Of a DNA stretch of 64,000 nucleotides, positions 1-7,150 are shown piece after piece. The stretch comes from Fistulifera solaris. Its lineage: Eukaryota. The stretch is taken from positions 1,674,001 through 1,738,000 of the forward strand of contig AP026123.1 of NCBI GenBank assembly GCA_030295235.1, in the 5' to 3' direction. Position numbers and translations under genes: made by a program. Under the pieces are notes generated by a model. That model was not told the origin of the DNA. It saw only the letters and a list, made by a program, of their open reading frames with translations, and made no database searches. Numbering within the stretch: the first letter of the stretch is position 1; each line of letters starts with the position of its first letter.

Positions 1-2646
1 CAGAGGAATTGTGCTGCATCGATTCAAGTTTTCCGAGCGCGTCCGGCACATGGCGTTTAGTCCAGCCAGCTCGTCTTATCTTGCCGTCACGCACGGCAAA
101 CATGTTCAGGTTTGGTGTACCCCTCGCATGCAAAAGGAGTTGACTCCTTTAGTGCTTCATCGCACGTACACGGGTCTGGGAGACGATGTTACCTGCTTGG
201 CTTGGTCACCTGATGAGTCTGTTCTCGCCGCCGGAAGTCGCGATTGTTCTATTCGCATCTGGACGCTGCATTCTACTTTGAATTACGAGCCGGTCACACT
301 AGCGGGACACAAGAGGGCCATCGTCGGACTGTATCTGCTGGCTTCTGGTGACCGAGTCCGCACATGCTATTCCGTCAGCGAAGACGGTGCGCTTGTTACT
401 TGGGAGTGCGAATACAATGATGATGAATCAATTCAAGTTGAAGACATGGATACGACGGATGACTACGATGCTGTCGGCTTCTTCACGGGAGGCACTGCTC
501 CCGCTCCTGAAGAATCCAAGAACACGTCTTCTTTTACAAACGCCGAACATCTTGTCAAGGGAACTTGGAAAGTGAAGAATCGACATTACTTCAATCAAGA
601 CAATGCCATCGTATCTACAGTTTCCTATTCGGAGCGTGGTCAGATATTGGCAGTTGGCTTCTCTTCTGGACTGTTCGGGCTTTACGAAATGCCTTCCGCT
701 GCGAATCTACACACCTTGTCGATCGGCTCCAATCAGCTCATTCGGGCATCTGCTCTGAATTACTCTGGTGAATGGTTAGCACTCGCGTGTCCCAAGTCAC
801 AGCAGTTACTGGTATGGGAATGGCGATCAGAAACGTACGTGCTGAAGCAAAGAGGTCATGCTTACGGAATGCGTTGCATGGCGTACTCTCCTGATGGAGT
901 GATTCTTTGCACTGGAGGAGAAGATGGAAAGATCAAGCTGTGGAATGCAACATCGGGATTCTGTTACGTCACCCTCGAACAAAATCATACTGCACCTGTG
1001 ACAGCTGTCGCTTTTGCGAAAGCAAGCGTCGTTCTTTCTGCGAGTTTGGACGGAACCGTCAGAGCCCACGATTTACATCGATATCGAACGTTTCGTACAC
1101 TGACGACGCCCACTCCTGTGCAGTTTCTCTCGCTGGCGATTGATCCGAGTGGAGAAATCGTCACTGCTGGTAGCACCGATCCTTTTCATATTTATGCTTG
1201 GAACCTACAGACTGGCAAGCTTTTGGATGTTTTTACTGGTCACACTGGTCCTGTTTGCAGCATGGCATTTCAGCCAAGCGGTGGGGTTCTTGTCAGCGCA
1301 TCTTGGGATGGTACAGTCAAATTGTGGGACTTGTACAAAAGGAACATTGCGACAGAAAGTCTTCAGCACACGGCAGACGTGGTTTGCGTCGCTTGTCGTC
1401 CCGACGGCAAAGAAATATGCTCAGGTACAACGGGTGGTATGCTATGCATCTGGGATGTAGAGACTGGGCGTCTAAAATACGAGATCGATGGACGCCGAGA
1501 TATTTCCGGTGGTCGAAAGATGAACGACCGCATGACGGCTGACAACAATGCCGCCGGTCGATATTTTACGTCCGTTTGCTACTCTGCGGATGGGTCTTTC
1601 ATACTAGCGGGTGGAAACTCAAAATATGTATGCATTTATGAGCTTTCTCAGCAAATTTTGCTCAAAAAGTTTCAAGTTACATTCAATCGAAGCTTGGACG
1701 GGGTTCTTGACGAGGTACGTTCCGTTTTGCATTTTGACATTGGTAGGCAGTGAGGGTCGGCAAAAGAGATCGCCATGATGATGAACTTCCCATAAACGTT
1801 CGCAGATTGCGTCGACGGTAGAGACACCAGTGGGTCAAAATAACTTCCTTGGATGTCTGAGCGATTTCTTCGACCGGAAACTTTTTATTTGTGTCAATTA
1901 TAATCGCCGTTTTTCTCACGCGCTTCTCGTTTGTTTCCTGCAGCTGAATTCTAAGAATTTAGGCCCTGCGGGTCCAATTGATGATCACGCAGATCCTGAC
2001 CAAGACGAAACTACCTACAACGCACTGAACCTACCAGGAGCCCGGCGCGAAGACGATGGATCAAGACGTTCCAAAGTGGAGGTTCTTACAATGGCCGTCT
2101 CTTTTCATCTACCGGAAGGGAGTGGGCTACTGTTTCGGGAGAAGGGTTGCACGTGTACTCGTTGGACGAAGACATGATCTTTGACCCAATCGGCCTCACC
2201 GAAGAAACCACCCCAGCACTTGTACAAACCAAAGTGAAGATTGGAGAGTTTAGTCTGGCTTTGCGTATGGCGTTGCACCTGAATGAATCTAGTCTGATCC
2301 GCGAAGTGATGGATCATGTCCCCTTGACGCCATTCCCTTGGTCGTTCGCTCGTTCGAACGCGCCGAGCCGAGCACACTGGAACGCCTCTTGCAGAATCTC
2401 GCGCAAACCATGGCCAAGTCACCCCATATTGAATACTATCTCCGATGGAGTTTGGAAATGCTACAAACCCATGGCTTGTACATGGAACGTCATCGTGGGA
2501 TCTTTATGCGATCCTTTCGTGCTCTTCACAAGTCCATCCAAATGCGATACGACGACTTGATTCGCGTCAGCGATGGTAACCAGTACATGCTCGAATTTCT
2601 TTTTGATCATGGAATGATGGCGAGGGATGCTGTCGAGATTCAATGA
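1..2646 (+). CDS. PWP2: Periodic tryptophan protein 2 (UTP1), WD40 SSU-processome subunit; 5' truncated
   Basis: WD40 repeats; QQLLVWEWRSETYVLKQRGH and LAGGNSKYVCIY motifs; C-terminal SPHIEYYLRW. Intron 1715-1943 (GTACGT..CCTGCAG) joins DE|LNSKN in frame; indels near 2103 and 2322. Confidence 0.95.
1770..1864 (+). ncRNA. U14: Box C/D snoRNA U14 (SNORD14/snR128 family), intronic
   Basis: Box C ATGATGA 1775-1781; domain A CGTTCGCAG 1797-1805; domain B TTCCTTGGATGT 1845-1856 abutting box D CTGA 1857-1860; terminal stem GAGATCGC/GCGATTTC. Confidence 0.92.
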
Positions 2647-3262
2647 TTTGTTTAACTAGCCATTGTTTATTGTATTATTACAAAGTGAATGTCTGTACCT
2701 GGTACCGGTAGTTTTGGTCACCGTTAGGTGAGTGCGGAGGAGGGCGAGAAAAGAGTTCCTAAATACTCGACTAGATAGGCAAAAATTTTTCTTCTTAGAT
2801 TATAGTAACAAGGCAATACGGTACTGAACTGTTATTTGCAGAAATACATATACTTTCGCTGTATCGTTTTAGAACGTGACTTTTGATTTTTGAACTGAGT
2901 CACGTGCGCGGGCCGCGATAACGTTACATAGAGTGATACTCCACTTTCCGAATAAATAACCAACCAACGGAAGCCTCAGATAGCAGTGCTAAGGTTTACA
3001 GTACAGGCTTTACTCACAGTTTAGTCGACCAAGAAAGAATGGAGAGTTCTGTAGTGTAAACAGTACCCAGCAACGCGCCCAATAATTTTGACAAGACTTG
3101 TCTTGGACGAAGCAGGCGAACAACACGCCACTGGTTATTTTGCAACGTCCACAAATTTCTGTGTTTATGCCATCCTTTTTCTTCTTCTTTCTCACCTCCT
3201 CCTAGCCTGCTCATTCACTTCTCTCGTTATTACGCTAAGCAGTAGAAAAGAAAAGTTGAAAA

Positions 3263-4460
3263 ATGGCGGGTAAAGTTGTGATCGAGACCGACAACGTAGG
3301 AACAACCGAAAGGTATCATGACGAATCAACAGCGAAAAGTGACGACCTAGAAAGTCAAGTATTTCTTCCCAAACCGAATAGTCGTGTTTCACGGAGACCT
3401 ACAGCGGCTACAGTCGATGCGGCGTTGTCGGATTCGGATTCGTCACTGGAAGAGATCCCCACAAAAGAATTCAGCGCAGCACCAAGTGCCCCGATTACTG
3501 TTCGGCGCCGCTGGGATTTACTCCGCTTATCTGTATTATGGGCATATTCAAGAAGATTTATTCAAGTATCGATCCACCGACAGCACTTCCTTTCAATCTG
3601 TATGGCTCTTGCAGTCGCTGGAATGTTTTGCTAATATCTTTGTCGGCCTCGTTGGTCGACGTATCTTCGGTGGCCGCGCAAATCTCTCGTTACGACCCTT
3701 CATCGCCACGGGCTGCTCTCAAGTCTTCGCAAAAGCCTTCACATCACTGGCTCTGGCAGCTGGTTTGAGTTTTCCCGTTTGTATTTTAGCGAAATCAGCA
3801 AAAATTGTTCTCGTTATGCTGGGTCAGCTCTTGTTGGGCGGTTCGAAATACGGGCTCCGAGATCTGCTATTTGTTCTATTAATTGTGTGCGGAACCGCTC
3901 TGCTGTCCGCCGGTTCTTCTCAAAAGCACAAAGACGAGACTGACACACCCGCTGGTCTCTGTTTCATCCTGATATCGTTGGTGATGGACGGCATTACAGC
4001 TGGCTTCCAGAAGCGTCTCAAGCAAACATATCGGGCTACACCTCCATCGACGTATGATTTCTTGCTGTACACCAATCTTGCCATGTGCGTTGTGGCTTTG
4101 AGTATATCCGTTGTAACGCAAGATCTGATCACTGGTCTGCTTTTTCTAGGAGAAAATCCAGTGGTGGCTGGAATGATCTGGAAGGTCTGTTTGTGTTCAG
4201 CTATCGGGCAGTCCTTCATCTTTTTCGTCGTGGCCACGTTCGATCCGATGGTATGTTCGACCATAACGACAACTCGCAAAATGCTTTCGGTTCTGTGGAG
4301 CGTGATATCAAAAGGTCATGTACTCTCGAATCAGGGATCCGTTGGATTGGCCCTGGCGATGAGCGGACTAGTGCTCGAAGTGCAAGGAAAGTTCACGAAA
4401 CTGAGTAAAGAATGCGAGAAGCAAGCAAAAATTTGTGTTAAGAACGCGAGTACAAAATAG
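3263..4460 (+). CDS. UAA-family nucleotide-sugar transporter (SLC35B1/HUT1-like)
   Basis: YLYYGHIQE, LAKSAK, SLVMDG, IGQSFIF and STITTTRK motifs; multiple TM helices; frame change near 3480. Confidence 0.88.
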
Positions 4461-4637: not shown

Positions 4638-7150
4638 TTATTTTTCAATCCCAAATTGTCGGTTCATTTGAGTGCGCAATTGGCCGGAGCGCAGAAGCCC
4701 CTCCCGTCGATTGGAGTTAGCCCATGCGTCGATCGCCACATGATATGTGTGCACATCAGGCCCAGCAGGTAAACGACCAAGCTTATGGAAAGTGATCATT
4801 TCGTTCAACAGCTTTTCAGAACGTTCGGGGTTGTTTTTCTTCGCCATCGCTTCGATAACGCGAGTATACGCGATTGCTCCAGGACGGATATGAGCGAATG
4901 CAGGCTGTTGTCCTAAAGTCCACATCATTTGTAGAAGCTTTTCTGCTCTCATTTCATCGACGGCGTGGTGATTGCCATAAAAGCCCGACCAACTGCTGAT
5001 AATCGTTTCGAAGTTTTTCGCGTCAGGGCGGGCGGCCTTGTTTCCGTTCCGATGGTCATATTCCATTTTCTTAAGTAAGCATTCGGCTCGATGAGGCATA
5101 CCTTCTTTTGCTAATGCACTTATGCAAGTCGTATACTTGATGGTATCCAGATTAGCAGCCTTATCTCCGTGTCGATAGCGTTCCTCCATCCAATAAAGAC
5201 AATTTACAGCATGATCAATCCCGCCTTGGCCTCTCGACACCCTAGATTGGATACCCAGCAGTTAGAACAAAATTGATTTACAAGTCGTGGCAACCAATCA
5301 ACAAACTTACCAATTTTTCAACAAGAGACTGTATGTGTACTCATCAGGCTTTACATAAAGTGTTCCTTCGTCTTGAAACTGGATGAGGCGTTCCACGACC
5401 AGCTGGGCTCGACGAGCTGATTCGGGGTCGTTGGATTTCGCCCACATTGCTATCACTGTGTTGAAATTCCGAGTGTGTGGCTTTGCTTTCTTGTTTCCTT
5501 CTTTGTAATCCGAAACCATTTCCCAAAGCAATTGCTCAGCACGTTCATGGGTAGATGGATTCTTCGTGAAGATATTCAACAGGTTGGAATAGGCGATGGC
5601 ATCCACTTGCAACACCTTCGCGTCCTGCTTCATTTTCATGTACTGACGCTCTGCGACTTCGGAGGCGTCGGCGCAATCGGATTCAGCTAAGCAGTGGAAG
5701 AGCACAGTATAAGCGTACGCATCTGGCTTGCACTCAGGGGCGACACCGGTGTCGCTAAGCCGATGCATCTCTTCAAGAAGATTTTCGCATCTTTCATGCG
5801 CGTCGAGAGACTTGGACTTGCGCCATGCATGTAAAACATTAGTGTATACACGCACATTGGGCTTCGCAAGCGTGTTGTGGTAGTTGAAGTAGTCCTGAAA
5901 CATGAGAGATAGTACATTTTCAGCGGCCGCGGCGTATCCCAGCTGTGCGTATCCATGGATGACCGCGTTGAAACATGCACCATTTGGGCGAAGAGTGCCA
6001 ATGCAGTCAAGATATTGCTGAATTGTACCCCGCAGAATACTGTGAGCTTGATCTGGAGACTCCGAATCGTGTGCAATGCTTTTGAGCATACGACAATAAG
6101 CCGGGAGCTTCATGTCCGCTATTTTCTGCCCCTGGTACACGGTATCTGAGAGATCGGCGTGCGTCGAAGTTTTAGATTCTTCTAGATCTTCGTCAAAGTT
6201 GAGATCGAACTGACTGAGTAACTTCACGCTGCTAAAGACACCCTCCGGGCAAAAGACGTCCGCTAGCGAGACGCTTTTAATGGAGTCAGGACTATGCGAC
6301 TCTTGCTTACGATCCCCAATAGCGCCGAACGAGTAAATGCTGGAAAACGGATCACAGAATGGTAGTGCCGTAGAATCCTTACTAAGAAGAACTTCAAGCA
6401 ATTGTACTGATGCTGGTGCTCGTGGCTTTTCTTCGTCTTCAAGCTCTTGTGCCGATGCAGGCGCTGGTGGATCATCTTTGTCTTTCTCGTCATCGCTTCG
6501 CTTTACGCGTTCTTCCGGTTTTGGAAGCGAACCCAAGCCATCAAATTCTGCGTCAAAACGTGAGGGTCTTTTTTCTGACACGCCTTGAACGTCGTAGCTG
6601 TGTTGTAGGCGTTGAAAGAGCAATCGCTTCTTTGTTTCTCTCGTCGTGGACGAGACCCTCAGTCGCGTCGTCCGATCCAACACCCAAAGCGGCAAAAGAG
6701 CCATCTGTGATTTGTTTGCTTTTGTTCGTAGAGAAACTCGACGTGTCGTATATAGTCGGTTTCGGATGTTTCAAGTCGAGAAAGGGTATGTTTTCCTTCT
6801 GCGTTTCAGTTAGGATCCCCTTTTTGTTCGGTCGCCTTTAAGCGACGGTGAGAGCGAAATTTTAGCCGAGGCGACGGCGAAGTTCTTTCCATTCTCGTGA
6901 AGCAATAAGCATGAAGTGAGTGAATCTTCTTTCAGAGCAGAGGATGGGGATCCTCGGTTTTCATCATGTAATCGCTTCCCACTGGGCCGAGAACAATTTT
7001 CTTTGTCATCCTCACGAGGATCCAGGTCTCGGTTCATCTTTACGAGCGCTGTCTGACAAGACTCTCCGACAATCTCGTTATGCAAAGAGTTTGCTGTGGT
7101 TTCTTTCATTGGATTCATCAAAGATCTCTCGCAATGGACGTTTCCAGCAT
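4638..7150 (-). CDS. Pentatricopeptide repeat protein with long low-complexity N-terminus
   Basis: PPR motifs (PNGACFNAVIHGYA, PNVRVYTNVLHAW, PDEYTYSLLL); intron 5242-5310; start uncertain because the N-terminal part is frameshifted. Confidence 0.8.

Follow-up and report, generated by a model that had tools for sequence, protein, structure and literature searches.

An intron of the PWP2/UTP1 gene of raphid pennate diatoms carries a predicted U14 small nucleolar RNA

The 64,000-nucleotide (nt) stretch of contig AP026123.1 analysed here (the window) begins inside a gene for the processome protein PWP2/UTP1, and the spliceosomal intron of that gene at 1715–1943 (+ strand) holds a predicted U14 (SNORD14) box C/D small nucleolar RNA (snoRNA) at 1770–1864 in the sense orientation. 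In the explanation that we favour, and that as a whole we consider very likely, this element is the diatom U14 orthologue, it is released from the PWP2 intron, and the intron has been retained for the RNA that it carries. Intron-encoded U14 as such is known, and PWP2 joins its host genes as a new one; the RNA itself is, to judge by its motifs, an ordinary member of a universal family that fails only the curated score of Rfam. Domain A of U14 pairs with the 5′ domain of 18S ribosomal RNA (rRNA) and is needed for the early pre-18S cleavages, and domain B guides the 2′-O-methylation of the C equivalent to yeast C414. In yeast, U14 is one of three essential snoRNAs; the region through which it binds 18S helix 6 is essential, and the one that directs the methylation of helix 14 at C414 is dispensable (PMC9196750).

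A search with Rfam models under an E-value threshold gave a SNORD14 (RF00016) match at 1770–1864 on the + strand that spans the entire model (48.1 bits, model positions 1–111 of 111), with an E-value of 4.9e-7 over the whole 64-kb window and of 2.7e-9 on 351 nt. It is the sole Rfam match in the window at E ≤ 0.05 and the single snoRNA match in the intron, on the sense strand of the host, and corresponds to a predicted mature RNA of ∼95 nt. Box C (ATGATGA, 1775–1781) and box D (CTGA, 1857–1860) are both evident in the sequence and in the Rfam match. Domain B, the predicted 18S antisense guide (ACTTCCTTGGATGT, 1843–1856), equals the Rfam consensus CUUCCUUGGAUGUCUGA, and the identity to the consensus continues through box D; the 16-mer of domain B with box D has one occurrence in the window at ≤2 mismatches versus 0.08 expected. 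Domain A falls within a conserved block at 1788–1806 (core CGTTCGCAG, 1797–1805). Against the Rfam consensus stretch aCAUUCGCAGUUuCCaCC, 12 of 18 aligned positions agree, among them the core UUCGCAG, which is retained in the Rfam SNORD14 alignment. The central region comprises 12 nt, compared with 28 nt in the Rfam model, and the Rfam stem pairs UCGC with GCGA and extends to 13–15 base pairs (bp). Counting back from box D, G1852 of domain B is the fifth base. As the box C/D rule places the 2′-O-methyl group on the target base opposite the fifth nucleotide before box D, the C paired with G1852 would be methylated. A D′-like TCGA at 1812–1815 (CCGA or CTGA in relatives) is seen in an alignment of five sequences described below, and its assignment as box D′ is tentative. 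Boxes C and D, domains A and B and the flanking stem were thus all recovered where the initial annotation had placed them, and its identification of the element as a U14 homologue is borne out by the full-length model match, although at a score below the Rfam gathering score. Weaker candidates in the same intron, namely snoZ157 (E 0.089), ceN33 (E 1.4) and sR42 (E 1.8), as well as a Hammerhead_HH9 hit that spans the 3′ splice site (E 1.5), were attributed to shared box and guide motifs or to chance. L011, the one locus given by a scan of viral contigs and considered as a source of the 18S target, contained a short rRNA-like fragment only and was dropped.

The gene around the element is split into an upstream exon (2–1714, + strand), which is cut at its 5′ end by the start of the window and forms a 571-amino-acid open frame with WD40/β-propeller Pfam domains, and a downstream exon (1944–2646, + strand) that carries a Utp12 domain (PF04003; 2293–2643, E 1.9e-16). 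Among the matches listed, the closest named homologues are annotated as ‘periodic tryptophan protein 2’, with a Fistulifera solaris protein (P0121) at 97% identity, followed by those of Seminavis (71%), Nitzschia (66–68%), Pseudo-nitzschia (62–66%) and Chaetoceros (59%). The propellers upstream, the Utp12 domain downstream and the named relatives agree with the host proposed in the initial annotation, and we assign the gene, by homology, to the PWP2/UTP1 of a raphid pennate diatom. The downstream exon is readable only in three frames, with breaks near 2101 and near 2322–2326, both at short homopolymer runs. In four public sequencing runs that contain the locus (X1–X4, kept as contigs of uncertain kind), a T is added behind 2101 at full depth in every run, and each run adds one letter at 2322, 2323 or 2326. 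Because all four runs insert letters there, we read the breaks as assembly indels in an intact gene and not as signs of a pseudogene.

The same runs bear on splicing. In one contig each of X2, X3 and X4, position 1712 is joined directly to 1942 (cut at +2), such that exactly 229 nt with GT..AG ends are skipped, which substantiates the annotated 229-nt intron 1715–1943 (GTACGT...TGCAG). No alternative splice form was seen in the run contigs at the locus, and the intron is the sole one seen in the 2.6 kb of PWP2/UTP1 within the window. Cover within the intron is uninformative on the mature snoRNA, as X2–X4 have none over 1787–1880 and X1 covers it at exon-like depth. Over window positions 1–2800 the runs show two versions of the locus, one represented by contigs identical to the window and the other by contigs that are 7–10% different, and within the intron the latter carry an extra letter behind 1726 and lack one at 1768; the two may be diverged alleles or homeologues.

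Conservation of the arrangement was followed in ten loci (L001–L010) that were retrieved by a metagenome scan with a U14 pattern, and in which host exons were located by tblastn with the PWP2 pieces of the window. PWP2 exons flank U14 on both sides in two of the ten, L010 (intron 277–510; upstream exon with 88% amino-acid identity to the window) and L004 (intron 3395–3678; 66%). Both introns interrupt the same boundary as in the window, between ...LDG[VI]LDE and LNSKN..., and hence the comparison with the orthologous PWP2 intron of other diatoms that the initial annotation had proposed finds U14 at an identical codon boundary. Relative to L010 and L004, the box C-to-box D stretch of the window is 80% and 74% identical, respectively, which matches the level of the neighbouring coding exons (61–76%); the rest of the intron, stem strands included, is 37–59% identical. 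In an alignment of the U14 of the window with those of L010, L004 and locus L006 (two copies), five diatom-type sequences in all, 18 of the 19 positions of the 1788–1806 block are invariant, as are domain B and the TGATGATG that contains box C. The GA of the D′-like YYGA motif is likewise invariant, and L004 has the canonical CTGA.

The boxes are flanked by an extended external stem, the 5′ strand of which lies at 1755–1773 (GGTCGG, 1755–1760; GAGATCGC, 1766–1773) and the 3′ strand at 1861–1875 (GCGATTTC, 1861–1868; CGACC, 1871–1875), both on the + strand. The duplex formed by the 30-nt flanks scores −22.6 kcal/mol in the window, compared with a mean of −12.2 (sd 3.0) for shuffled flanks, and a fraction of 0.003 of 300 shuffles equals it; the stem also appears in the minimum-free-energy fold of the region. 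The corresponding duplexes of L010 and L004 score −26.1 and −25.6 kcal/mol, with shuffle means of −12 to −13 and none of 300 shuffles as good. For the five stem pairs beside the boxes, 96% of the cells in the five-sequence alignment are paired and two pairs have changed on both sides, values that are reached by 6 of 500 shuffles, which argues that the external stem is kept through compensatory changes. The spacing to the splice sites differs among the loci: box D is 83 nt from the 3′ splice site in the window, 95 nt in L010 and 112 nt in L004. As the long stem is present in all three at these differing distances, we read it as a conserved aid to assembly. A possible branch site in the window, TTCTCAC at 1913–1919 (+ strand), is named by motif only and lies ∼54 nt beyond the point where the snoRNA is predicted to end; in human, box C/D snoRNAs favour positions ∼50 nt ahead of the branch point (PMC5519232).

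These features suggest a route by which U14 would be made. Intron-encoded snoRNAs are transcribed from the host promoter and then released by splicing, debranching and exonuclease trimming (PMC7277114). For the window, PWP2 pre-mRNA would be transcribed from the host gene, the 13–15 bp external stem would juxtapose boxes C and D so that the core proteins assemble, the intron would be spliced out and then debranched, and exonucleases would trim it to the protein-protected RNA of ∼95 nt that we expect to accumulate. Made in this way from the PWP2 intron, U14 could amount to at most one copy per PWP2 transcript. No separate transcription unit is visible for the window U14, which lies on the sense strand of the intron. 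An alternative is that U14 has its own promoter, inside or upstream of the intron, or that it is assembled without splicing, with the intron a mere address. A putative promoter has been proposed upstream of the intronic U14 of Neurospora (PMC2780460), and long external stems of the kind present here can free box C/D assembly from splicing (PMC5519232); however, the 60 nt between the 5′ splice site and box C leave little room for a promoter, and this stretch is only ∼50% identical between relatives. We regard such independent expression as improbable and release from the spliced PWP2 intron as the better description.

The distribution of the intron was surveyed further among 120 listed PWP2 homologues. 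Many of the metagenome PWP2 calls end ∼690–780 residues in, lacking Utp12, and have read from the upstream exon into the intron. In 75 of the 120, the tail past LDGVLDE begins with V, a codon contributed by the GT of the intron, whereas 31 (30 sorted automatically and P0186) continue with LNSKN..., being either spliced or uninterrupted; the remaining 14 had no recognisable exon-end motif and were dropped. Translated U14 motifs were found in 16 of the 25 tails of ≥21 residues, which extends the comparison with other diatoms beyond the two orthologous loci. The tail signatures (MMMNFP-stop, DDELPINV, PINV..FLGCLS and MMMNSHKR..ITSLDV-stop) are three-frame translations of box C with domain A, and of domain B with box D. 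P0155, on a 40.8-kb contig, translates its entire 207-nt intron in frame, U14 included. P0207 gave no pattern match, but its ending resembles a box C variant and it is a probable 17th U14-bearing tail. The F. solaris protein P0121, 97% identical to the window, ends in MMMNFP-stop, and therefore the second version of the locus also bears U14. The long tails of P0140, P0157, P0174, P0184, P0188, P0203, P0220 and P0236, which have no U14 signature, were judged uninformative.

The phylogenetic extent of the arrangement is indicated by a FastTree tree of 93 upstream-exon rows (92 of the 120 listed homologues and the exon from the window), with Chaetoceros as the root. The 15 signature proteins that were marked on it all fall in one clade of 83 rows, spread across all four of its main subclades, and this clade contains every named member of the Naviculales, Bacillariales and Surirellales in the tree. 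The nine rows outside the clade and its sister row P0178 are all uninterrupted at the intron site; members of the outside clusters are continuous open reading frames (ORFs) on contigs that reach 47 kb (P0222) and 270 kb (P0377), and one of these clusters is Chaetoceros tenuissimus. As the outside rows are uninterrupted, the intron with U14 is a trait of the raphid pennate clade and not of all diatoms. We propose that the intron has been kept at its codon boundary across the raphid pennates because U14 lies inside it. The U14 cargo would then give a reason for an intron that stays at one codon boundary across the Naviculales, Bacillariales and Surirellales and is absent from Chaetoceros and other outside lineages.

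Elsewhere among the ten metagenome loci, U14 occupies varied sites. Locus L006, a diatom contig with a γ-COP 73–76% identical to those of named pennate and centric diatoms, has two tandem intergenic copies (2718–2815 and 2889–2986, + strand; 171 nt apart), each with its own external stem and with 5′ halves identical to that of the window; PWP2 was not found within ∼2.7 kb upstream or 3.5 kb downstream of these copies. In L007, a GC-rich contig, U14 (3473–3577, + strand) lies between the eIF3b RRM exon (2611–3492) and the eIF3b WD exon (5566–6447), probably in an intron of eIF3b. Three U14 copies and a SNORD12-like snoRNA occur on one strand at intervals of ∼300–1500 nt in L002, L003 and L008 (− strand in L003 and L008), an arrangement reminiscent of animal host genes with several snoRNAs. 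In L001, whose contig looks ascomycete-like in origin, U14 (1623–1720, + strand; 37.2 bits) begins 89 nt past the stop of a complete Utp6 ORF (195–1535) on the same strand, in a ∼450-nt gap ahead of a convergent gene. This ORF has a U3_assoc_6 Pfam domain (E 4.7e-25) and its best structure match is the ‘Utp6 / U3 snoRNP protein’ chain 5oql_E (E 1.1e-68), which we take to be from the Chaetomium thermophilum 90S particle. As the L001 U14 is bracketed by GTATGT (near 1588), CTGAC (near 1771) and AG (near 1785), it may be located in a 3′-UTR (untranslated region) intron of UTP6.

Such variety is relevant to the question of whether the PWP2 location has any regulatory meaning. It may be that U14 is real, but that it came to lie in PWP2 by historical accident, in which case the intron of any steadily expressed host would serve and the linkage would persist since loss of the intron would mean loss of the RNA; we give this about an even chance. 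The eIF3b intron, the tandem intergenic copies and the SNORD12 cluster among the ten loci fit this account, as do the published hosts, which range from a non-coding gene in Neurospora (PMC2780460) to the hsc70 introns of mammals (PMC7277114). SnoRNA-bearing introns are also known to keep their positions simply through resistance to loss (PMC3675471), and diatoms outside the raphid clade have a PWP2 without the intron and so manage without the linkage. Against accident stands the nature of the host, an early small-subunit processome factor, together with the observation that three of the ten loci, in two independent arrangements, adjoin genes of UTP-B (UTP6 in L001), which is suggestive although the sample is small. 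Utp6 and Pwp2 are presumably subunits of the same UTP-B module. That U14 was captured repeatedly by UTP-B genes (PWP2 and UTP6), with co-transcription setting the ratio of the early 90S components, is an extension that we think unlikely; on the same reading, PWP2 splicing might in addition respond to snoRNP formation on its intron, in the way that SNORD86 acts on NOP56. That a processome gene hosts a predicted processome RNA is itself a fact of the sequence, and a coupling of U14 and PWP2 output can plausibly be drawn from it; their co-expression may have a selective value.

Several observations weigh against release of a functional U14 from the PWP2 intron as we propose it. At 48.1 bits, the SNORD14 match falls short of the Rfam gathering score of 64, and the default Rfam scan of the window, which applies the gathering score, was blank (it likewise gave no rRNA in the window). 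The base preceding UUCGCAG is a G in the window U14 but an A in the Rfam consensus, and the fold energy of the whole region is unremarkable (z −1.0). Across most of the exon pieces beside the intron, the contigs that show splicing diverge by ∼5–6% from the window, and they probably derive from the second, diverged version of the locus, such that we infer splicing of the window’s own copy from the identical boundaries and the reading frame. Nine of the 25 long tails match no signature pattern (eight if P0207 is counted as positive), and these may end before the snoRNA. Finally, the intergenic copies of L006 imply that the PWP2 copy need not be a diatom’s only source of U14. The low score and the free-standing tandem genes of L006 could together be taken to mean that the intronic copy is decaying or redundant and that the working U14 is encoded elsewhere. 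We consider this highly improbable: every box and each of the two guide domains is intact, and they are invariant while the rest of the intron has diverged, the invariance spans loci whose PWP2 upstream exons are only 66–88% identical at the amino-acid level, and the stem appears to be kept through compensatory changes. Moreover, because all 16 of the U14 matches in the ten metagenome loci are also below the gathering score (37.2–59.6 bits), the low score reflects the model and not decay. None of the 17 U14 matches considered here reaches the RF00016 threshold of 64, and annotation that relies on it will overlook the U14 of many protists, fungi and invertebrates. The diatoms, for their part, gain a confidently placed U14 gene that annotation at the gathering score would overlook.

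U14 shares a dicistronic unit with snR190 in yeast and occurs in clusters in plants. To these and the vertebrate hsc70 introns, which the initial annotation had named as known settings of U14, must be added the intron of a non-coding host in Neurospora (PMC2780460) and a cluster in Ostreococcus (PMC7671301), both absent from its list. The intron-encoded U14 of mammalian hsc70 is the founding example of intronic snoRNAs (PMC7277114). Like the window U14, that of vertebrate hsc70/HSPA8 has the orientation of the protein-coding gene whose intron it occupies, and it is released from the spliced intron, as we propose for PWP2 (PMC7277114). The hsc70/HSPA8 host, however, encodes a chaperone and has three copies in three introns, whereas here one copy lies in the one intron seen of a processome gene. 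Human NOP56 resembles PWP2 as a gene of the machinery for snoRNPs and ribosome assembly with an intronic box C/D snoRNA, SNORD86 (PMC7277114); SNORD86 is bound by the product of its own host and switches its splicing as feedback (PMC7277114), whereas PWP2 is no box C/D core protein. U14 of Neurospora crassa (CD37, cluster V) is likewise intron-encoded outside animals (PMC2780460), but its host has short ORFs only and a second snoRNA, CD16 (PMC2780460), in contrast to the essential protein gene and single snoRNA of the window. In cluster 1 of Ostreococcus tauri, the RNA (Ot-CDsno13) and its guide elements are the same as here (PMC7671301). Clustered U14 genes are released from a polycistronic precursor, unlike the window U14, which lies in an mRNA intron; the two tandem copies of the diatom contig L006 share the clustered type of layout. 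A literature search, limited to listings and excerpts of papers, found no publication that describes U14 of diatoms or names PWP2 as a host of U14, and in the excerpted text of a Phaeodactylum tricornutum small-RNA paper snoRNAs appear merely as a reference gene (PMC4247016).

SnoRNAs in ribosome-related host genes are long established, and the PWP2 arrangement extends known biology without overturning it; unsurprising in principle, it is useful for annotation and for the study of diatom intron evolution. As an essential processome RNA is here physically tied to a processome protein gene, co-regulation of the two becomes testable in a tractable alga.

Two further observations were made in the survey and in the metagenome loci. 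Within a single lineage of diatoms beyond the raphid clade, the calls P0396, P0397, P0399 and P0400 (the cluster of P0237) stop ∼60 residues earlier, after ...EIDGRRDI[ST]GG, on contigs of 6–126 kb, which suggests an intron at a different site of PWP2; no U14 motif was found in the short tails of these four. The U14 copies of L005 and L009 have an unusual box C region, AGATGA, and apparent tandem repeats, and in L009 a further U14 copy starts directly after the first.

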